DNA from: a virus
Reading direction: 5' to 3' (one strand)
Virus record (IMG/VR): IMGVR_UViG_3300022744_000001
Location: 2,022 to 66,021 of that record
Length of the DNA: 64,000 bases
Shown here: positions 507-63,958 of the stretch, one piece after another
How positions within the stretch are numbered: position 1 is the stretch's first letter
How the letters are laid out: each line of letters starts with the position of its first letter
Notes under the pieces: generated by a model
The model's database searches: none
What the model was told of the DNA's origin: nothing
What the model saw: the letters and a program-made list of their open reading frames with translations, nothing else
Translations under genes and position numbers: made by a program

Positions 507-583
507 TGGCACCCGCGTAGGGATTCGAACCCCAAACCTCATGGTCCGTAGCCATGTGCTCTATCCAGTTGAGCTACGCGGGC
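507..583 (-). tRNA. tRNA-Arg (anticodon ACG)
   Basis: Reverse complement folds as a 77-nt cloverleaf. Acceptor GCCCGCG/CGCGGGU, D-arm GCUC-AACUGGAUA-GAGC, anticodon arm CAUGG-CUACGGA-CCAUG, T-arm UGGGG-UUCGAAU-CCCUA, encoded GCCA end. Confidence 0.85.
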
Positions 584-589
584 AGAAAA

Positions 590-666
590 TGGCGTCCGCA
601 GGAAGATTCGAACTTCCAACCTTTGGCTTCGTAGGCCACTGCGCTATCCGATTGCGCCATGCGGAC
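590..666 (-). tRNA. tRNA-Arg (anticodon ACG), second copy
   Basis: 77-nt cloverleaf. Acceptor GUCCGCA/UGCGGAC, D-arm GCGC-AAUCGGAUA-GCGC, anticodon loop CUACGAA, T-arm GGAAG-UUCGAAU-CUUCC, GCCA end. Lies 6 nt from the first Arg gene. Confidence 0.8.
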
Positions 667-668
667 AT

Positions 669-744
669 TGGTGGAGAAGAAGGGACTCGAACCCTCAGCC
701 TGTCGCGTGCAAGGCGACTGCTCTTCCAATTGAGCTACTTCCCC
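669..744 (-). tRNA. tRNA-Ala (anticodon UGC)
   Basis: 76 nt. Acceptor GGGGAAG/CUUCUCC includes the G3:U70 alanine identity pair. Anticodon loop CUUGCAC, T-arm GAGGG-UUCGAGU-CCCUU, ACCA end. Confidence 0.9.
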
Positions 745-749
745 AAACT

Positions 750-824
750 TGGCACCCCAGACGGGTTTCGATCCCGCTTGTCCTGCATGAAAGGCAGGCA
801 TCCTAGCCACTAGATGACTGGGGC
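750..824 (-). tRNA. tRNA-Glu (anticodon UUC)
   Basis: 75 nt. The 5' part GCCCCAG-UC-AUC-UAGUGGCUAG-GAU has the bacterial tRNA-Glu architecture. Anticodon arm CCUGC-CUUUCAU-GCAGG, T-loop AUCGAAA, GCCA end. Confidence 0.8.
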
Positions 825-830
825 ATAAAT

Positions 831-907
831 TGGCGTCCCTCCGGGGATTTGAACCCGCGATTTGCAACTTGAGAGGCTGCTGTCCTTGCCAACTAGACGA
901 GAGGGAC
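831..907 (-). tRNA. tRNA-Glu (anticodon CUC), T-stem imperfect
   Basis: 77 nt. Acceptor GUCCCUC/GAGGGAC is perfect, with a Glu-type D region UC-GUC-UAGUUGGCAAGGAC and anticodon arm GCAGC-CUCUCAA-GUUGC. The T-stem gives only 3-4 bp in any register. Confidence 0.6.
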
Positions 908-931
908 AAAATCTGGTGTAACTTCCGGGGC

Positions 932-1261
932 ATGCCTCGCAAGACGCAACCCCCGACCGACCTTGAACGAGCGTTCAAAGCCCAGGTGAAAAACACGCTG
1001 AACGCCCTCATTTTGGGGCGAAACATCAGCCGAAATCAACTCGCCAAACGCATGGGAATCTCGATGTCCCGTCTCACCGAGATGCTGGACATACCCTCGC
1101 TGGGCAACATCTCCCGCATCTGCGAAACTCTGAACGTCGAGCCCCAGATCCGACTCAAGGCCGCGAGCCGCAATCGCCCCCCGCCGAAGCTCGAGGAGGG
1201 GGCCCTCAAAGGACGACCCAAGAATGCGCCACCAGAGGCTGAGGATGAATGTCTCGATTGA
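932..1261 (+). CDS. XRE/Cro-type helix-turn-helix protein
   Basis: 109-aa ORF from ATG 932, just past the tRNA at 831-907. HTH-like segment RNQLAKRMGISMSRLTEMLDIPSLGNISRICETLNV. The track start at 830 would overlap the tRNA. Confidence 0.55.
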   Translation: MPRKTQPPTDLERAFKAQVKNTLNALILGRNISRNQLAKRMGISMSRLTEMLDIPSLGNISRICETLNVEPQIRLKAASRNRPPPKLEEGALKGRPKNAPPEAEDECLD

Positions 1262-1619
1262 GAGGTACCTAGCCGGGTTCGAGCAAACCATCGAACGGCT
1301 CCCCGGCATCCTCGACCGCTGGGAGAGCATCGAAGACATGCTCTGCGGCGAGTACATCGACCAGCTCGAATGGATGCTCGACGTCCGGGAAGACGTCCTC
1401 AACCTCGCCGTGGAGCAAGGCCAGGGCACCCCGGTTCGTGCCCGCATGGACCGAATCAACGCCGGTCTAGGGCGCCTCAGCATCCGGATCAAAGAGGTCA
1501 TGGGCGTCGATGTTCTCGAGACCCTGACTCCAGAGTTGGAGCCCGCAGTGGGAATCGAACCCACAGCCTCCTGTTTACGAAACAGGTGCTCAACCGTTGA
1601 GCTATACGGGCGAAAGTAA
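1245..1619 (+). CDS. hypothetical acidic protein
   Basis: ATG 1245 lies 17 nt upstream of the upstream gene's stop codon, so the two ORFs overlap (...GGATGAATGTCTCGATTGA). 124 aa. The 3' ~80 nt overlap tRNA-Thr on the opposite strand, so the true C-terminus is uncertain. Confidence 0.45.
   Translation: MNVSIERYLAGFEQTIERLPGILDRWESIEDMLCGEYIDQLEWMLDVREDVLNLAVEQGQGTPVRARMDRINAGLGRLSIRIKEVMGVDVLETLTPELEPAVGIEPTASCLRNRCSTVELYGRK
1537..1611 (-). tRNA. tRNA-Thr (anticodon CGU)
   Basis: 75 nt. Acceptor GCCCGUA/UGCGGGC, D-arm GCUC-AACGGUU-GAGC, anticodon arm CCUGU-UUCGUAA-ACAGG, T-arm GUGGG-UUCGAUU-CCCAC, UCCA end. Confidence 0.85.
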
Positions 1620-1641
1620 CAGGGGCACTCGTACCCCTGTT
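1618..1641. terminator. hairpin between convergent genes
   Basis: AACAGGGG-cactcgta-CCCCTGTT, an 8-bp perfect stem between the + ORF ending at 1619 and the - ORF ending at 1646. Confidence 0.4.
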
Positions 1642-1645
1642 GAAA

Positions 1646-2623
1646 TCAGAAGTTGTCCGAAACGACAACCCAGAAGTCGCTGGCCAACTGGGTGTTCTTC
1701 GCGTAGGCGTAGCTCATCCAGAAGTACCCAGCGAGGCCCCAGTTGACGCCCCACGAGTTGCGAACGAGGAATGCACCCGTGGTGCCGTCGGGCATCTTCT
1801 TGGCGTCGTCGTAACCGACGAGCGCGACAGCATGACCGCCCTGCAAGTGTTCCGTGGGACCCGGCAAGCCAAGAAGCGCTTTCTTGGCCATGTCTGCGGT
1901 CATGAAATAATCGTAAACTTGGAACCCAAATCCAACGAGATACCCCATCGCCAACGTGGACTTCATCGTGGCGATGTCCCCGTCCGCGATCGAGTGGTAG
2001 CTCGTGATCAGCTTCGTAGCTGCCTTGGCCCAGAGGTCCGGGGTTGGGTTGACCGTGAACTTCTGGATGTTGTAAGGCCAGCTGGCCTCGTCCAAAATCC
2101 CGTACTTGACTCCGGTCTTGATGGCATCACGAATCGTGGCGCCCGAGTCTTCGTTGACGGTACCTTCGATCTTACGGGTCGCGTAATACTCAAAGAGCCG
2201 CGACACCTGGGTGAACTTCGGGGCGGGAGTCGGGGCCGGGGTCGGCGTGGGAGCCGGAGCCGGGTTGGACACCGCCACGTTGGTCGTGAACGTGACCGAA
2301 CCGTCCGCATTGACCACGACGTTCGAGGTGGTCACCTTGGCGGTAGCCGCGGTAGCTGCCAGCTTCTTCGAAGTCGCCCCGCGGAGGTCGCTGCTCTCGA
2401 TGAGGGCCGCGAACATATTCGCAGTGCAGCTCCCGAGTTCACCTTGGTCCTCGATAGGGCTGCAAATGGGTCGATTGTCGTAAGAGGGTGGGGTAGCAAA
2501 GAAGTTGCCGGACTTGAGACGGTATCCCTCGTCTCGAGCGTCAACAAGCTGCTTCTTCCAACCACCAACATGAACCCTACGAGGGGTCCCGTCCGCATGA
2601 TGTGCAGTCTTGATCATGCACAT
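1646..2623 (-). CDS. papain-family (C1) cysteine peptidase with internal insert
   Basis: 325 aa. Motifs QGELGSCTAN (catalytic Cys), GGHAVALVGYD (His) and VRNSWGVNWGLAGYFW (Asn/Trp block). A ~70-aa insert after the Cys helix ends in PAPAPTPTPAPTPAP. Confidence 0.8.
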   Translation of the reverse strand: MCMIKTAHHADGTPRRVHVGGWKKQLVDARDEGYRLKSGNFFATPPSYDNRPICSPIEDQGELGSCTANMFAALIESSDLRGATSKKLAATAATAKVTTSNVVVNADGSVTFTTNVAVSNPAPAPTPTPAPTPAPKFTQVSRLFEYYATRKIEGTVNEDSGATIRDAIKTGVKYGILDEASWPYNIQKFTVNPTPDLWAKAATKLITSYHSIADGDIATMKSTLAMGYLVGFGFQVYDYFMTADMAKKALLGLPGPTEHLQGGHAVALVGYDDAKKMPDGTTGAFLVRNSWGVNWGLAGYFWMSYAYAKNTQLASDFWVVVSDNF

Positions 2624-2679
2624 ACGCGTGAATAAGAGGGTTAGTTAGCCCGTAAAACTAGCACTTTTGCTAGTCAAAA

Positions 2680-2754
2680 TGGCTCCGAGGGTAGGGGTCG
2701 AACCTACGACCATCCGGTTAACAGCCGGACGCTCTGCCACTGAGCTACCTCGGA
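2680..2754 (-). tRNA. tRNA-Asn (anticodon GUU)
   Basis: 75 nt. Acceptor UCCGAGG/CCUCGGA, D-arm GCUC-AGUGGCA-GAGC, anticodon arm UCCGG-CUGUUAA-CCGGA, T-arm GUAGG-UUCGACC-CCUAC, GCCA end. Confidence 0.9.
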
Positions 2755-2787
2755 ATAGACTCTGTCCCGCAGGACAGGCCGTAAAAA

Positions 2788-3429
2788 CTACCGTGGTTTT
2801 GCAGTGTCACCTTGGATGTAACCCTGCCGGTCAAGCTCTTCCACGGCGAAGTGGTTCTTCCACTTGATGACCAGGTGCTTCTGCCGGAACTCGTCAACGA
2901 CGATCCGATCCGAGAAAATCGTGACGACCGAGTCGTGGTAGCCGGTTCGGTCGAGAACCTCAACTTCCTGACCCTTGCGGTAGACACGAGAGGTCTGGTT
3001 TGACCACTCATACCCAGCAAGCTCGACTTCCTCTGGGCCGAGAAGCTCTTCCAGAGGCGGTTCGGAAGCCGTGACCGAGCTGGCGAACTTGTCGCTCTCT
3101 TTGGCGGAGTCCTCGACCTTCTTTTCGAAGTCGTGAGGGTCCATGGTCCGAATGTCGAACCACAACGACCGTGCGTGATTCAAGTTGTGGCCACCGGCTC
3201 GGCCGGAGCTGTACGAGACGTACACGGCCTGGGCCTTGAACCAAACCCGAATCGTCCCATCCGGAGACGTCGCGTGCGGCACCTTGAGCCCGTCAACCAC
3301 CTTCCAACGCTCCTTCTTCAAGTGCTCGAGGATTTCAGCTCGAGCTTCAAGGAAGGTCTTGCGCTTGGCGGTCTTGTCAGAGAAGGCCGCGGCGACGCGG
3401 AGGGCGATGTCGATGGGGTGGTTGGCCAT
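2788..3429 (-). CDS. hypothetical protein (213 aa)
   Basis: ATG ORF with TAG stop and coding-like composition. No family recognised. Confidence 0.55.
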   Translation of the reverse strand: MANHPIDIALRVAAAFSDKTAKRKTFLEARAEILEHLKKERWKVVDGLKVPHATSPDGTIRVWFKAQAVYVSYSSGRAGGHNLNHARSLWFDIRTMDPHDFEKKVEDSAKESDKFASSVTASEPPLEELLGPEEVELAGYEWSNQTSRVYRKGQEVEVLDRTGYHDSVVTIFSDRIVVDEFRQKHLVIKWKNHFAVEELDRQGYIQGDTAKPR

Positions 3430-3488
3430 GTGTTCCTCTCTCTACGGGCCGCACGAAAAGAGTAGCGCACCGAAGTGCACCCTCGAAA

Positions 3489-3573
3489 TGGCTCCAGGAG
3501 CAGGATTCGAACCTGCGATTGGGTTTCCCCGCGCGGTTAACAGCCGCGTGCACTACCACTATGCGACCCTGGA
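3489..3573 (-). tRNA. tRNA with anticodon GUU (Asn) and a long variable arm
   Basis: 85 nt. Acceptor UCCAGGG/UCCUGGA, D-arm GCAU-AGUGGUA-GUGC, anticodon arm CGCGG-CUGUUAA-CCGCG. The 15-nt variable region CGGGGAAACCCAAUC contains a GGG-AAA-CCC hairpin. T-arm GCAGG-UUCGAAU-CCUGC, GCCA end. Confidence 0.7.
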
Positions 3574-3576
3574 ATA

Positions 3577-3738
3577 GGTGCGCGCGAAGCGCACCGAAAT
3601 AAAATGGGTGGAGGATCCGAGGCCGGGCATCAAAGCACCACGACCGAAGGTTCGAAGCTCTGGCCGCAACACGACGCCAACAGACCTCGGACCCTCCACC
3701 AAGGAAGGCCCCATAAGAGCCTTCCCTCGTTTCTCTTG
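3577..3738 (+). other. structured non-coding segment inside the tRNA cluster
   Basis: Three elements: hairpin GGTGCGC-gcgaa-GCGCACC (3577-3595); a long-range inverted repeat pairing 3607-3622 with 3685-3700 (15 of 16 bp); then GGAAGGC-N9-GCCTTCC followed by CTCGTTTCTCTTG (3703-3738). ORFs in the track here look non-coding. Confidence 0.3.
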
Positions 3739-3951
3739 CCTCAAGCTAGAGTCGTATCGCCCGTCATGTCCCAGCCGCTGGAGCCCCTCAGTATAGTCGA
3801 GGGTCGATCACGCTCTGGCGCTACACGCATGGAGGTACCATGCGCGACGATTCACGCTCTAACCTGTCAGATTTTCAAAGACTTACCCGATGATTTCCAG
3901 CAAGAAGCCCGGAGGCTCGTACCCGAGGGTACCTGTGCACATCGTGTAACT

Positions 3952-4028
3952 TGGTGGGCCTGCGGGGACTCGAACCCCGAACCGTTCGCTTAAGAGGCGA
4001 CTGCACTGACCAGTTGTGCTACAGACCC
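3952..4028 (-). tRNA. tRNA-Lys (anticodon CUU)
   Basis: 77 nt. Acceptor GGGUCUG/CAGGCCC, D-arm GCAC-AACUGGUCA-GUGC, anticodon loop CUCUUAA, T-arm CGGGG-UUCGAGU-CCCCG, ACCA end. Confidence 0.85.
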
Positions 4029-4077
4029 GAAATTCGCTAATCTACGTCTTGGTACCTGTCCGGAGACAAGTGAAACT

Positions 4078-4152
4078 TGGTGAGGCCAGAGAGACTTGAA
4101 CTCTCAACCGTCGGGTTAAAAGCCCGCTGCACTACCATTGTGCTATGACCTC
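4078..4152 (-). tRNA. tRNA-Lys (anticodon UUU)
   Basis: 75 nt. Acceptor GAGGUCA/UGGCCUC, D-arm GCAC-AAUGGUA-GUGC, anticodon arm GCGGG-CUUUUAA-CCCGA, T-arm GAGAG-UUCAAGU-CUCUC, ACCA end. Confidence 0.85.
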
Positions 4153-4154
4153 AT

Positions 4155-4242
4155 TGGTGGAGGATGATGGAGTCGAACCACTCAGCCTTAATGACGCCTC
4201 GTTTACAGCGAGACCTGCCTCCCGGGGCACACGTCACCCTCC
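4155..4242 (-). tRNA. tRNA-Tyr (anticodon GUA), class II
   Basis: 88 nt. Acceptor GGAGGGU/AUCCUCC, anticodon arm UCUCG-CUGUAAA-CGAGG, long variable arm as in bacterial tRNA-Tyr, T-loop UUCGACU, ACCA end. Confidence 0.75.
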
Positions 4243-33051: not shown

Positions 33052-33729
33052 GTGGACAGTAGCGCAGAAGAGTTTGAGCAGATAGTGCGCGAGAGTTTAT
33101 CCGCTGCACAAGCCCTACGAAAACTGGACCGGGCTACCGTGGGGTCCAACTACGACTGGGTGCGTCGGGAGGTTCAACGGTTTGGGCTCGACACATCTCA
33201 CTGGGGAAGAGCTGGTGCTCGCAATACAACCCCGAACCTCGATGAGGTTTTCATTGAGAATGGTGCCTACTCAACAGGTCTTGTTAAGACGATCATTCTT
33301 CGTGAACGTTTACTCCCGGAGCTGTGTGCTGAGTGTGGATTAGGACCCTCCTGGAGGGGTAAGAAATTAGTCCTCCGCCTTGACCACAAAAACGGGAAAC
33401 GAAGTGATCACCGGCTCGGAAACTTGCGTTTTCTGTGTCCGAACTGCGACTCTCAAACAGAGACATTTTGCGGTCGCAACAAACGTCTCCCAGCCAAGCT
33501 GTGTAAATGCGGGGTGGCAATAGGGCAGCAGTCCGCAGCTTGCAGGTCGTGCACGGCAAAAAGCAGAAAACCAACAACGAAAATCGTTTGGCCTCCATTC
33601 GAGGAAGTGCAGGAAAGGGTCAAAAACACCTCCTTCCTTGCCACAGCCAAACATCTTGGTGTATCAGATAATGCAGTTCGGAAGTTTTTACGCTCCCGTG
33701 CCCGAGTGGTTGAAGGGGCAGGATTCTAA
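33052..33729 (+). CDS. HNH homing-endonuclease-like protein
   Basis: LRLDHKNGKRSDHRLGNLRFLCPNCDSQ is an HNH core. N-terminal ...GLDTSHWGR and C-terminal LGVSDNAVRKFL are HTH-like. Visibly lower GC than the flanks. The last 38 nt overlap the tRNA. Confidence 0.75.
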   Translation: MDSSAEEFEQIVRESLSAAQALRKLDRATVGSNYDWVRREVQRFGLDTSHWGRAGARNTTPNLDEVFIENGAYSTGLVKTIILRERLLPELCAECGLGPSWRGKKLVLRLDHKNGKRSDHRLGNLRFLCPNCDSQTETFCGRNKRLPAKLCKCGVAIGQQSAACRSCTAKSRKPTTKIVWPPFEEVQERVKNTSFLATAKHLGVSDNAVRKFLRSRARVVEGAGF

Positions 33730-33783
33730 ATCCTTGGGGCCGCAAGGCCCACGCCGCAGGTTCGAACCCTGCCGGGAGCGCCA
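33692..33783 (+). tRNA. suppressor tRNA, anticodon CUA (reads UAG), serine-type architecture
   Basis: 92 nt: GCUCCCG-UG-CCC-GAGUGGUUGAA-GGG-G-CAGGA-UUCUAAA-UCCUU-[20-nt variable arm G-GGGCC-GCAA-GGCCC-ACGCC]-GCAGG-UUCGAAC-CCUGC-CGGGAGC-G-CCA. The acceptor and T stems pair perfectly. Confidence 0.8.
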
Positions 33784-62547: not shown

Positions 62548-62708
62548 GGCAGGTTGTCCTGGGGGTCGGTGGGCGGGAGCGTCGGAACGCTCTGGGCGTA
62601 GCGCACCCACGCCTCGAACGAGAGAGGGGTGGTGTGCTTTTCGGCGCAGGACGAGACGTAGTCGTCGTAGGCGGCTCGGGCTTCTTGTTCTTGGATCAGG
62701 CTGGTCAT
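62541..62708 (-). CDS. small hypothetical protein (55 aa)
   Basis: My own translation; below the track size cutoff. MTSLIQEQEARAAYDDYVSSCAEKHTTPLSFEAWVRYAQSVPTLPPTDPQDNLPY, with strongly G/C-biased third positions. Confidence 0.45.
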   Translation of the reverse strand: MTSLIQEQEARAAYDDYVSSCAEKHTTPLSFEAWVRYAQSVPTLPPTDPQDNLPY

Positions 62709-62763
62709 GTCCACCTAACGCATGGGGCTCGACGATTCTGAACCGGAATCGTAGGCTCCGCCC

Positions 62764-62982
62764 ATGGATTACGACCAGCAGCCCGACCGAGACACGGAAG
62801 CACTCAAAACCGCATGGGGTTCTGTCCGCGAGGCCGCTACCGCCGTGGAGGCCGCCCAATCCGCTATGCGGTCCGTAGGGGTGCGCCTCACAGTGAACGT
62901 GAGTTTGCCACCGGGCGTGCCCCTTTACACGGAAGTTCCGGCTCCTTCCGAGCGCCCCAAAAGAGTCGGCCGGAACGATTGA
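62764..62982 (+). CDS. hypothetical protein (72 aa)
   Basis: ATG ORF. Confidence 0.4.
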   Translation: MDYDQQPDRDTEALKTAWGSVREAATAVEAAQSAMRSVGVRLTVNVSLPPGVPLYTEVPAPSERPKRVGRND

Positions 62983-63007
62983 CTTCCTTTGTTTTTACGG
63001 ATAGTTT
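62979..63007 (+). promoter_or_regulatory. sigma-70-like promoter of tRNA-like element A
   Basis: TTGACT, a 17-nt spacer, then TAGTTT. The -10 ends 6 nt before GGAAGCG at 63014. Confidence 0.5.
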
Positions 63008-63013
63008 GCGATC

Positions 63014-63099
63014 GGAAGCGTCTTGGTAGTCCAGGCCCCCGTCTTCTTCTTCGCAGCCAGCGGGGGCCTGGGGTGCAGGTTCGATTCCTGCCGCTTCCT
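63014..63099 (+). ncRNA. tRNA-like RNA A (acceptor + T-arm intact, no normal anticodon arm)
   Basis: Acceptor GGAAGCG/CGCUUCC (7/7) and T-arm GCAGG-UUCGAUU-CCUGC. The centre is an 11-bp stem CCAGGCCCCCG/CGGGGGCCUGG around the 19-nt loop UCUUCUUCUUCGCAGCCAG. No CCA is encoded. Confidence 0.5.
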
Positions 63100-63149
63100 C
63101 TTTACCCCGGCGCGAGGGTTCAGCCGCCCATAAAAAAGGGCAAGCGGGC

Positions 63150-63178
63150 TTGACGCGTGTAGGATCAATTACTACTTT
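63150..63178 (+). promoter_or_regulatory. sigma-70-like promoter of tRNA-like element B
   Basis: TTGACG, a 17-nt spacer, then TACTTT. The -10 ends 5 nt before GGAAGCG at 63184. The -35 context TTGACGCGT is identical to 30743. Confidence 0.45.
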
Positions 63179-63183
63179 CTGAG

Positions 63184-63258
63184 GGAAGCGCTCGGTGGCC
63201 AGGCGTCCCCCATGTCCCCCATGTGGCGTCCGGTGAGGGTTCGAATCCCCCGCTTCAG
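63184..63258 (+). ncRNA. tRNA-like element B (degenerate copy of A)
   Basis: Same 5' GGAAGCG and 3' CGCTTC, with a T-loop-like GAGGG-TTCGAAT-CCCCC. The centre holds the tandem 9-mer GTCCCCCAT x2 and does not fold as an anticodon arm. Confidence 0.35.
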
Positions 63259-63263
63259 CTTTA

Positions 63264-63830
63264 TCAGCACTCCTCGAGCTGTCCGTCTCGCAACCACCCG
63301 TGATACGAACCGCAGATGATGCTGGGGGTCACGGTGATGTTGGGTGGGGTCCCGGTTCGGGTCCACCAGCCGCCCCCGCTGGCAGGGCCGTCCACGACCC
63401 AATCGCCCCCGGGCGTACGCACCACCAGGACGTCGCCGTCAGGGCTCTTCGCGAAGCTTGTGCCTTTGAGCCAGCTCGCAATCCACATCGAGCCCACTGG
63501 GGCTTGTCCGAGCACCGTGAGGTCGCCCGTCCCCGGGTGCCGGTACATCCGGGTCTTGCCCACCTGCCACTGGTCCGCGGGCATGAACTCGTACTGGCAC
63601 GCCACGCAATGAGTCGGCCACCGGGGGTCGGCCCGGTCCACGCCGTCCAAGGTGTGCTCCCCCTCGAGCTGATTTGCAAAGGGGTATGGCATCTGACCGA
63701 TGGTTGCTTTTGCGTCGTGCCCCCACTCGTGAACACACGGGGTGGCGCTCGAGGAGTAGGTGAAGCGCCGCAAGGACACCTCAGCTACTTCGGTAGGTTC
63801 AAGTAGGTAACAGGTAATCTTGCGGGTCAT
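63264..63830 (-). CDS. hypothetical protein, possibly DUF6527-like
   Basis: 188 aa. The C-terminal WWTRTGTPPNITVTPSIICGSYHGWLRDGQLEEC resembles my recollection of DUF6527. Confidence 0.55.
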   Translation of the reverse strand: MTRKITCYLLEPTEVAEVSLRRFTYSSSATPCVHEWGHDAKATIGQMPYPFANQLEGEHTLDGVDRADPRWPTHCVACQYEFMPADQWQVGKTRMYRHPGTGDLTVLGQAPVGSMWIASWLKGTSFAKSPDGDVLVVRTPGGDWVVDGPASGGGWWTRTGTPPNITVTPSIICGSYHGWLRDGQLEEC

Positions 63831-63853
63831 GCCTAAGACGGTGCATAAAAAGA

Positions 63854-63881
63854 AGGAGGGGAGGCTTTCACCTCCCCTCCT
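63854..63881 (-). terminator. intrinsic terminator
   Basis: AGGAGGGGAGG-ctttca-CCTCCCCTCCT is an 11-bp perfect stem. On the minus strand it is followed by TTCTTTTT. It lies 78 nt downstream of the stop at 63959-63961. Confidence 0.65.
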
Positions 63882-63958
63882 TTGGGCTTTGTTTCAAGAC
63901 GGGATGCCAGCAGCCGCTGTCCTGAGTTCTCCCCAGGCACCATACGCCCCGGATAGTC

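Follow-up and report, generated by a model that had tools for sequence, protein, structure and literature searches.

What kind of gene begins and ends like a tRNA and carries no anticodon arm in between? The question is raised by two neighbouring plus-strand sequences, element A (63014-63099) and element B (63184-63257), in a 64,000-nucleotide stretch of viral DNA (IMG/VR record IMGVR_UViG_3300022744_000001, positions 2,022 to 66,021; hereafter the window). A sequence-only reading of this stretch had proposed that the two are small independent transcription units rather than decayed tRNA fragments. Comparison with related metagenomic contigs suggests that A and B are probably working RNAs and not broken tRNA genes, and on the same comparative evidence the tandem A-then-B module has been kept in a small clade whose genomes are very large and phage-like. 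The explanation we favour, to which we give about an even chance, is that A and B are paralogous, separately transcribed, non-decoding tRNA-like RNA genes whose products would serve as protein-recognised tRNA mimics, without commitment to any particular target.

Element A consists of an 85-nt body (63014-63098) followed by a discriminator U at 63099. Inspection of its two ends reveals a tRNA of good quality: the acceptor stem GGAAGCG/CGCTTCC joins 63014-63020 to 63092-63098 with 7/7 positions paired, and the T arm GCAGG-TTCGATT-CCTGC (63075-63091) is paired at 5/5. Between them lie a 10-nt 5' linker or mini D hairpin, UCUUGGUAGU (63021-63030); an 11-bp GC-rich helix of CCAGGCCCCCG (63031-63041) with CGGGGGCCTGG (63061-63071), in which 13 pairs are possible if two G.U are counted; a 19-nt apical loop, TCTTCTTCTTCGCAGCCAG (63042-63060; as RNA UCUUCUUCUUCGCAGCCAG), holding the family-conserved pyrimidine run UUCUUCU and a GCCA motif; and a variable-loop-like linker, GGU (63072-63074). 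The D region allows just a 2-bp, 5-nt mini hairpin, CC-UUGGU-GG. The sequence-only reading had listed the 7-bp acceptor stem, T arm, 11-bp stem and 19-nt loop, all of which are found where it had placed them, and the folding that it had proposed as a check returns the same structure as the RNAfold minimum free energy (MFE) fold (-45.7 kcal/mol, z = -3.85, 0/200 shuffles equal). CCA is not encoded after A: the 3' end CGCUUCCU is followed by CUU, giving genomic TCTT versus TCCA in five orthologues. The 12 canonical tRNA genes of the window each include the CCA, whereas A and B have none. No second copy of the 11-bp hairpin was found in the 64-kb window, and a repeated or mobile hairpin was rejected on account of this uniqueness.

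Orthologues were located by scanning contigs that encode homologues of a 188-aa protein, the gene for which lies beside the elements (63264-63830, minus strand), for the acceptor/T-arm architecture. A-type sequences of 85-169 nt occur in six lineages, namely the window, L124, L125, L146, L148 and L234; two further copies from the JGI metagenome scan, L142 and L143, are near-identical to L125 and were counted within that lineage. The longest, a 169-nt orthologue at L146 2172-2340 (-), has two extra hairpins in its apical region. B-type sequences of 74-79 nt are complete in the window, L146 and L234, in each of which B stands directly after A on the same strand, and a 3' B-type fragment lies at the end of L126. 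Between element-carrying lineages the 188-aa neighbour protein is 57-63% identical, and none of the source assemblies has a called protein gene that overlaps the elements. Searches further afield returned little. No family member is present in L127, L147, L149-L151, L235, L236 or 80 IMG/VR loci (neighbour 31-56% identical); 185,579 species genomes scanned for the 5' linker plus T loop gave a single chance match in a Nocardia coding region; the JGI metagenome scan gave just the close L125 relatives and two chance matches; IMG/VR scans with the exact 5' part of A or with a loop-plus-T-loop pattern gave only unrelated tRNA or tmRNA pieces; and blastn of 62700-63400 against GenBank phage records gave no match. 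By these searches the family is narrow and so far purely metagenomic. It is absent from Rfam 15, and the literature searched held no description of such RNAs.

Each element is preceded by a promoter-like motif of its own. Upstream of A, the -35-like hexamer TTGACT (62979-62984, +) is followed after 17 nt by the -10-like hexamer TAGTTT (63002-63007, +), which ends 6 nt before G1; upstream of B, TTGACG (63150-63155)-N17-TACTTT (63173-63178) spans 63150-63178 (+) and ends 5 nt before G1. The pattern TTGAC(T/G)-N17-TA(G/C)TTT, which the sequence-only reading had placed before each element, is accordingly present at both, and this strict form, derived from the A and B sites themselves, has 2 matches in 64 kb (A and B only) versus 0.03 expected. 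A looser form, TTGACN-N17/18-TANNNT, has 6 sites in the window versus 1.16 expected. A strict sigma-70 scan reports no promoter at A or B because the -10 hexamer shares just T1, A2 and T6 (3/6) with TATAAT. Across the eight family sites with upstream flank, the -35 hexamer is TTGACT/G or TCGACA, the spacer is 17 nt (16 once), the -10 hexamer is TAGTTT, TACTTT, TAGTCT or TACGCT, and 5-8 nt separate it from nucleotide 1. In A-type orthologues the -10 hexamer is TAGTTT or TACTTT and stands 6-8 nt from nucleotide 1, and the B-type orthologues have TTGACG-N17-TACGCT (L146) and TTGACG-N17-TAGTCT (L234). The spacers are unrelated between lineages (for example, TCCTTTGTTTTTACGGA at window A versus TCGCTAGACGTTTCCGC at L146), such that hexamers and spacing are conserved while spacer sequences drift. 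The A-type -35 hexamer TTGACT also always contains the TGA stop codon of a small upstream open reading frame (ORF) of 65-79 aa without a family match, represented by the 72-aa ORF of the window (62764-62982, +) and by copies at L124 6316-6513 (-) and L146 2372-2611 (-). To judge from these copies, the small ORF followed by an A-type RNA is a conserved arrangement.

Selection on an RNA is indicated by the stems. Pairs were counted over five A-type sequences, with L234 read in addition for position 3:70. In the acceptor and T stems, 60/60 cells are paired, even as four pairs change on both sides (3:70 from A-U to G-C, 6:67 from C-G to U-A, and two T-stem pairs); one-sided changes number 0, and sliding the partners by 1-3 columns lowers pairing to 50-72%. 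Position 3:70 is A-U in three and G-C in two of the five, or A-U in 4 versus G-C in 2 over six lineages once L234 is included. The long helix begins after an invariant GG|CC junction, and its five basal pairs are formed in 28/30 cells, with three or four pair types at each of basal positions 3-5. The basal strands read CCAGG/CCUGG in the window, CCAUU/UGUGG in L125, CCAUG/CGUGG in L148, CCGCA/UGCGU, or in a second reading CGCAC/GUGCG, in L124, CCCAC/GUGGG in L146 and CCCAG/UUGGG in L234; higher in the helix, window CCCCCG/CGGGGG corresponds to L125 GGGG/CCCC. Because MAFFT could not align the variable helix in register, its covariation was taken from direct reading and single-sequence folds, not from a pair-counting tool. 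In the comparison of the long stem across related genomes that the sequence-only reading had suggested, the sequence turns over and pairing is kept; the description in that reading of the D and anticodon region as replaced by a long stem is upheld by the same covariation, and a D stem of the tRNA-Sec kind is not conserved. MFE folds recover the full architecture of acceptor stem, long helix and T arm in 5/6 A-type RNAs. In L234 the standard T arm is missing from the predicted fold, which still contains the acceptor stem and the long helix. The z-scores for five A-type RNAs range from -1.8 to -4.8.

Some unpaired parts of the A-type RNAs are conserved as well. Their 5' linker follows YC-YYGGU-RG and could form a 2-bp mini hairpin presenting GG in the fashion of a D loop. 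The helix is 9-13 bp or longer and leads to an apical region of 17-26 nt, or to a branched one, where a GC-rich, covarying stem of 2-4 bp (CG/CG, GCG/CGC, GAG/CUC, GGGG/CCCC, GCCA/UGGC) has UCCAA(A) and (A/G)GCCAU on its flanks and supports a pyrimidine loop, UUCUUCUU and variants. The segment UUCUUCUUCGCAGCCA of the window A loop is identical in L125 and L148, with variants in L124, L146 and L234. Inserted apical hairpins in L124 and L146 contribute to an arm that places the loop from ~12 to >25 bp away from the body across the family. At the 3' end, 5/6 A-type lineages have U73-CCA. Taken together, the promoters, stems, helix, loops and lack of an overlapping protein gene indicate, as far as comparison of sequences can, structured RNA genes, with chance and simple decay ruled out. 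The proposal of independent units rather than decayed tRNA fragments finds support in the orthologues, the separate -35/-10 pairs and the compensatory changes. The functional candidates of the sequence-only reading, a decoy for tRNA enzymes or pairing through the UCUUC loop, are narrowed by the comparison, and both stay candidates.

Element B is 74 nt long and less regular. Its acceptor strands, GGAAGCG (63184-63190) and CGCTTCA (63251-63257), form 6 pairs with a G1.A72 mismatch, and its T arm (63235-63250) has 4 pairs plus a bulged A around a TTCGAAT T loop (63240-63246). The linker is CUCGGUGG. An imperfect long helix joins 63199-63207 to 63225-63233 below an apical hairpin, CAUG-UCCCC-CAUG (63211-63223), all on the plus strand. 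A tandem 9-nt duplication, GTCCCCCAT x2 (63204-63221, +), is private to the window lineage, the orthologues having a single UGUCCCCCA. The sequence-only reading was right about the 5' GGAAGCG, the 3' CGCTTC, the doubled core motif and the T loop of B; the acceptor stem needs a correction, since G1 faces A72. Across the B type, the outer pairs of the apical hairpin covary (CAUG/CAUG, CGUG/CACG, GAUG/CAUC) around an unchanging UGUCCCCCA, position 1:72 is G.A, G.A or A-U, and none of the copies encodes CCA. A second haplotype, L123 (a 917-bp contig, ERZ27251996), matches the window over the shared 217 bases save two substitutions, which alter which helix B can form. ARAGORN calls B only at relaxed settings, where it finds a second register, CTGAGGG/GCTTCAG, as a poor tRNA-Gly(CCC), or in the L123 variant, in the same alternative register; this call is regarded as an artefact of marginal score.

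Do A and B then belong to a known class of RNA? Element A has the canonical acceptor and T arms of a tRNA (7 bp, 5 bp and a GTTCRANYC T loop), of which window B falls short by its mismatch and bulge. A has neither a canonical D stem of 3-4 bp nor a canonical 5-bp anticodon stem with a 7-nt loop (U33, purine 37). Default ARAGORN finds 12 ordinary tRNAs in the window, neither A nor B among them, and Rfam at gathering thresholds reports neither element. The covariance search that the sequence-only reading had advised yields sub-threshold similarity for A only: under permissive Rfam settings its best match is tRNA-Sec (RF01852), at 34.5 bits versus a gathering score of 47, and for B nothing tRNA-like appears. 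A Sec-like cloverleaf for A was rejected, as its D stem CUUGG/CCAGG cannot form in the orthologues and competes with the covarying long helix. The acceptor stem and T loop point to serine. Among IMG/VR sequences of the form GGAAGCG...GGTTCGAWTCC...GCTTC that ARAGORN calls, 106/117 are tRNA-Ser, mostly with anticodon UGA, and their commonest 3' end is U73-CCA (41 cases). One phage tRNA-Ser(UGA), L107, shares 24 identical 3' bases with A and continues with TCCA. Of the serine identity features, the acceptor stem, discriminator and CCA match phage tRNA-Ser; the long helix as a variable arm is only a possibility.

Other tRNA genes and tRNA-shaped sequences were observed alongside. In the window, an array at 507-4239 (-) holds 11 tRNAs, all of which encode CCA, and its tRNA-Asn (3489-3573) measures 85 nt, its variable region being longer than is usual for that isotype. 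A separate 92-nt class II tRNA at 33692-33783 (+) has CUA as its anticodon, ends in G73-CCA and resembles an amber suppressor of Ser shape (ARAGORN 'Pyl'; Rfam tRNA 52 bits). TAG terminates 14/31 ORFs with high third-position G+C (GC3) in the window, and the CUA tRNA together with such frequent TAG stops implies read-through or stage-specific recoding. Elsewhere in IMG/VR, tRNA-shaped sequences with good acceptor and T arms, some with CCA, go uncalled by ARAGORN (L104, L027, L026/L116, L157, L159 and L185). L104 is an 81-nt GC-rich tRNA-shaped sequence ending in ACCA, and in L157 short or odd tRNAs are densely arrayed. It may be that large phages commonly carry tRNA-like genes of unusual form.

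How might such RNAs work? On the favoured reading, host RNA polymerase would start at or a few bases from nucleotide 1 of each gene, using the sigma-70-type -35/-10 pair, and a start at the mature 5' end would make an RNase P step unnecessary. The encoded RNA keeps the acceptor/T-arm minihelix. Its D arm has shrunk to the 2-bp, 5-nt mini hairpin, and its anticodon arm has given way to a long helix, free in sequence and length provided that pairing is kept, which a short GC-closed hairpin caps with an all-pyrimidine loop (UUCUUCU-type in A, UCCCC in B). As no 7-nt anticodon loop is possible and the arm runs from ~12 to >25 bp, A and B presumably cannot decode. The minihelix would probably make the RNAs ligands or substrates of tRNA-end machinery, in 3' trimming, CCA addition and perhaps recognition by seryl-tRNA synthetase; the conserved U73-CCA suggests a 3' end presented to this machinery, possibly to that synthetase. 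Seryl-tRNA synthetase ignores the anticodon and reads the acceptor stem and the long extra arm, and the long arm of the elements could substitute for the long variable arm of tRNA-Ser.

Expression from host-type promoters would be early, and the RNAs could then bind, titrate or distract some host protein able to recognise the shape of a tRNA together with a pyrimidine loop. Candidate targets are defence nucleases or toxins directed at tRNA, and enzymes that process or charge tRNA. Such a role, tRNA-Ser mimicry by which a host protein is titrated or distracted, is the likeliest one and is offered tentatively, at well under even confidence. Defences that cleave tRNAs in the anticodon arm or the 3' tail are widespread (PMC13056530, PMC12851939). 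The more specific idea of RNA counter-defence, whereby early non-decoding tRNA-Ser mimics absorb or misdirect a tRNA-attacking effector or capture seryl-tRNA synthetase, is speculative and taken by itself unlikely; its effectors could include anticodon-arm nucleases, 3'-tail modifying enzymes and tRNA-Ser-specific toxins, with the pyrimidine loop acting as a pseudo-anticodon loop.

Several observations weigh against reading A and B as working tRNA mimics. The family is small, with six A-type and three B-type lineages, and the covariation statistics therefore rest on few independent events. It is absent in relatives with a neighbour protein 50-58% identical (L127, L149-L151, L236). The window A copy has lost the CCA kept by its orthologues and, as no B copy has one either, an intact tRNA 3' end is evidently not strictly required. 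Window B carries two 1-nt deletions versus its orthologues, one in the 5' linker and one in the 3' strand of the T stem, the latter leaving that stem bulged with 4 pairs; its fold is no better than that of shuffled sequence (z = +0.32); and both L123 substitutions fall inside it (A18C and U46A, B numbering), with ~140 flanking bases identical. No defence-system model matches any of eight neighbouring proteins, both flanking ORFs included, and no candidate partner protein was found among the neighbours, the 188-aa protein having a confident yet unmatched fold. Conservation of the loop nucleotides, moreover, fits base-pairing equally well as protein recognition. For the window copy of B, the two deletions, the private duplication and the L123 substitutions suggest that constraint may be relaxed in this lineage, with a partly degraded look as the result.

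That last possibility touches on an alternative in which both elements are decaying tRNA pseudogenes, neutral and functionless leftovers of a phage tRNA-Ser duplication. Neither element is recognised by tRNA finders, window B has its 1:72 mismatch, shortened T stem, private 9-nt duplication and non-significant fold, near-identical haplotypes differ by 2 single-nucleotide polymorphisms in the 74 nt of B and 0 in its flanks, and the lost CCA of window A and the patchy occurrence in relatives are what decay would leave. Neutral decay is not expected, however, to keep 60/60 stem cells paired through four double substitutions, to rebuild a long helix with new sequence in each lineage, or to hold promoter hexamers, their spacing and the loop motifs; we consider this explanation quite improbable for the pair, and it perhaps applies in part, to the window B copy only. 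The opposite proposal, that A and B are true decoding tRNAs from which an insertion or intron is removed after transcription, or else an attachment site derived from a partial tRNA gene, draws on acceptor and T-arm quality equal to that of real tRNAs and on the ability of ARAGORN intron mode to force models onto the region. Those models join unrelated A and B halves, no excision in any orthologue yields a 5-bp stem and 7-nt loop with U33, and the D arm is missing in any case. An attachment site, which the sequence-only reading had named as an alternative if the elements matched the 3' half of a host tRNA, would be expected to hold only the 3' tRNA part beside an integrase; the elements have both acceptor strands and a promoter, the genes called within 10 kb of them include no integrase, and that alternative is not supported. 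The whole group of explanations is very improbable.

Two further explanations accept a working RNA and differ as to its work. In one, A and B are base-pairing riboregulators, with a tRNA-like body that just gives defined ends and stability while the apical loop (UUCUUCUU in A, UCCCC in B) pairs with purine-rich AAGAAGAA or GGGGA targets of host or phage, such as ribosome-binding regions or purine-rich loops. Loop nucleotides are indeed conserved while the supporting helix turns over entirely, both paralogues have pyrimidine-only loops, and the loop-body distance, which ranges from ~12 to >25 bp with hairpins inserted in L124 and L146, speaks for a loop module that is autonomous rather than for rigid readout by a protein at two sites. 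The search for targets speaks the other way. In the 64-kb window, the complement of the A loop, at <=3 mismatches, has a single match and nothing beyond chance expectation; complementarity to 16S or 23S rRNA does not exceed that of the sense-strand control; the 8-mer UUCUUCGC is kept neither in L234 nor in the corresponding L146 loop; and the conserved Ser-type acceptor end with U73-CCA is left unexplained. An rRNA antisense role was considered on the strength of UUCUUCGC, which is complementary to 16S 971-978, and of the L146 segment UCUUCGCGUUGC, with 12-nt complementarity to 16S 966-977, and was rejected: sense-strand and unrelated 9-12-nt matches are equally common, and the L146 segment is paired in its own hairpin. 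We regard the riboregulator explanation, the chief rival, as possible and somewhat doubtful.

In the other, the elements are miniature relatives of tmRNA, consisting of the tRNA-like domain and helix 2 without a message, which would bind SmpB or enter stalled ribosomes and so either rescue ribosomes without tagging or block host trans-translation. Their architecture is that of the tmRNA tRNA-like domain, and the Rfam tmRNA model (RF00023) aligns end to end with the L125 orthologue over acceptor stem, stemless D loop, long helix, GGA-CG and T arm, at 26.8 bits (E = 2.7e-07 in that search) with its 300-nt middle deleted. This and the other score obtained, 18.8 bits, remain below the gathering score of 47. 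Position 3:70, moreover, is never the alanine-acceptor G.U, U stands in place of A as the discriminator, the apical regions of the six A-type RNAs contain no frame with a conserved stop codon, and no pseudoknots are predicted in the family, for which no search aimed at pseudoknots was made. ARAGORN in tmRNA mode finds nothing; a tmRNA call obtained only at an 80% threshold was rejected because it splices the 5' end of A onto the 3' end of B and has an implausible tag. Derivation from tmRNA is improbable on this evidence.

The surroundings of A and B bear on the origin of the window. The window is ~60% G+C with mostly orphan ORFs, and besides the 11-tRNA array and the one suppressor-type tRNA its genes include a peptide deformylase, NUDIX, methyltransferases and an ADP-ribosylglycohydrolase. 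The window forms part of a phage-like contig of 448 kb. The gene for the 188-aa protein lies on a metagenomic contig of 448,224 bp, and on one of 49.8 kb whose A/B region is identical; relatives of the protein, in a family of at least 264 members, occur on 166 viral contigs in IMG/VR, the longest reaching 463 kb. We hold with moderate confidence that the source is a very large phage. The protein has invariant C7, C32, H38, C75, C78 and H177 and only a weak C-terminal DUF6527 match. Its AlphaFold model is all-beta (pLDDT 93), without a Foldseek match in the PDB or a sequence match to solved structures, and the neighbouring proteins have no match to PHROG families of known function. A 13-bp GC-rich hairpin with A and T runs on both strands (63852-63883), lying between the 188-aa gene and the gene upstream of it, resembles a bidirectional terminator. 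At L125 3530-3560 and 3880-3910, the motif GAATCG..CCGAG(G/C)AGCGTTACCTAGAAC-ATG is repeated just before start codons, with the counterpart GAATCGTCGAGCCCCATGCGTTAGGTGGAC-ATG at window ~62714-62750; it may be a phage promoter for leaderless or short-leader mRNAs.

Few non-decoding tRNA mimics are known, namely tmRNA, Y RNAs and viral tRNA-like ends, and each revealed new biology. A and B would add a compact, comparatively supported family of two paralogues with their own promoters, found in uncultivated giant phages and invisible to tRNA finders. It makes precise predictions, in that the predicted 5' ends are defined to a single base and the orthologues predict non-templated CCA addition on the window A RNA. 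Should the RNAs prove to be decoys against immunity that is directed at tRNA, a counter-measure at the level of RNA would join a fast-growing field, and counter-defence or synthetase capture would make them the first dedicated tRNA-decoy RNA family described in phages; if they are not decoys, they provide a clear example of a tRNA-Ser gene reshaped into another kind of gene.

Among known RNAs, one close likeness is with class II phage and bacterial tRNA-Ser(UGA). The acceptor GGAAGCG/CGCUUCC, T arm, U73 and CCA of the A type recur in many IMG/VR phage tRNA-Ser genes, and in both one long extra helix joins 2-5 nt ahead of the T stem. The elements differ in having no D stem, anticodon stem-loop or UGA anticodon, in having a single arm versus two (anticodon and variable), and in being missed as tRNA by ARAGORN and Rfam. 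tRNA-Sec (RF01852) and the allo-tRNAs (PMC5389517) also combine a Ser-type acceptor end with unusual arm geometry, but the geometry of A is 7/5 and not 8/5, 9/4 or 8/4, no UCA or other anticodon lies in a 7-nt loop, and a Sec-like 5-6-bp D stem is possible only in the window A copy. The tRNA-like domain of tmRNA shares the 7-bp acceptor, the T arm, a D loop with GG but no proper stem, a long helix at the anticodon-stem site and, with most A-type members, an encoded CCA. In contrast to tmRNA, the elements lack G3.U70, a message domain and a tag reading frame, have U rather than A as discriminator, and measure 74-169 nt versus ~350 nt.

D-arm-less mitochondrial tRNA-Ser(AGY), in which a short connector replaces the D arm and the anticodon-side helix is extended, resembles the elements in both respects and in its serine-type acceptor end; it differs in possessing a 7-nt anticodon loop and in decoding, whereas the elements have apical regions that are 17-26 nt long or branched. 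The T4 tRNA cluster yields stable non-tRNA RNAs that are co-transcribed with and processed from the cluster. Unlike these, each element has a promoter of its own, and 59 kb separates the pair from the tRNA array of the window. Phage tRNAs that evade tRNA-targeting defences, as described by van den Berg et al. 2023 in so far as that work is cited in PMC13056530, are likewise small, tRNA-shaped and phage-encoded, with a presumed part in the contest over host tRNAs, but are complete decoding tRNAs with altered loops. The bacterial Y RNA YrlA (PMC4201824) is, like the elements, a non-decoding RNA with a long helix that mimics the tRNA elbow through T and D loops, and Y-RNA-type RNAs have been reported in some phages (PMC4201824). 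It is permuted relative to A and B, ending in a long Ro-binding stem with its acceptor-like stem closed by a loop, whereas the elements end in the acceptor stem; no TROVE or Ro60 gene is among the called genes within 10 kb, and no Rfam Y RNA match was found. Features by which tRNA, tRNA-Sec, tmRNA and YrlA are defined are missing from the A/B family.

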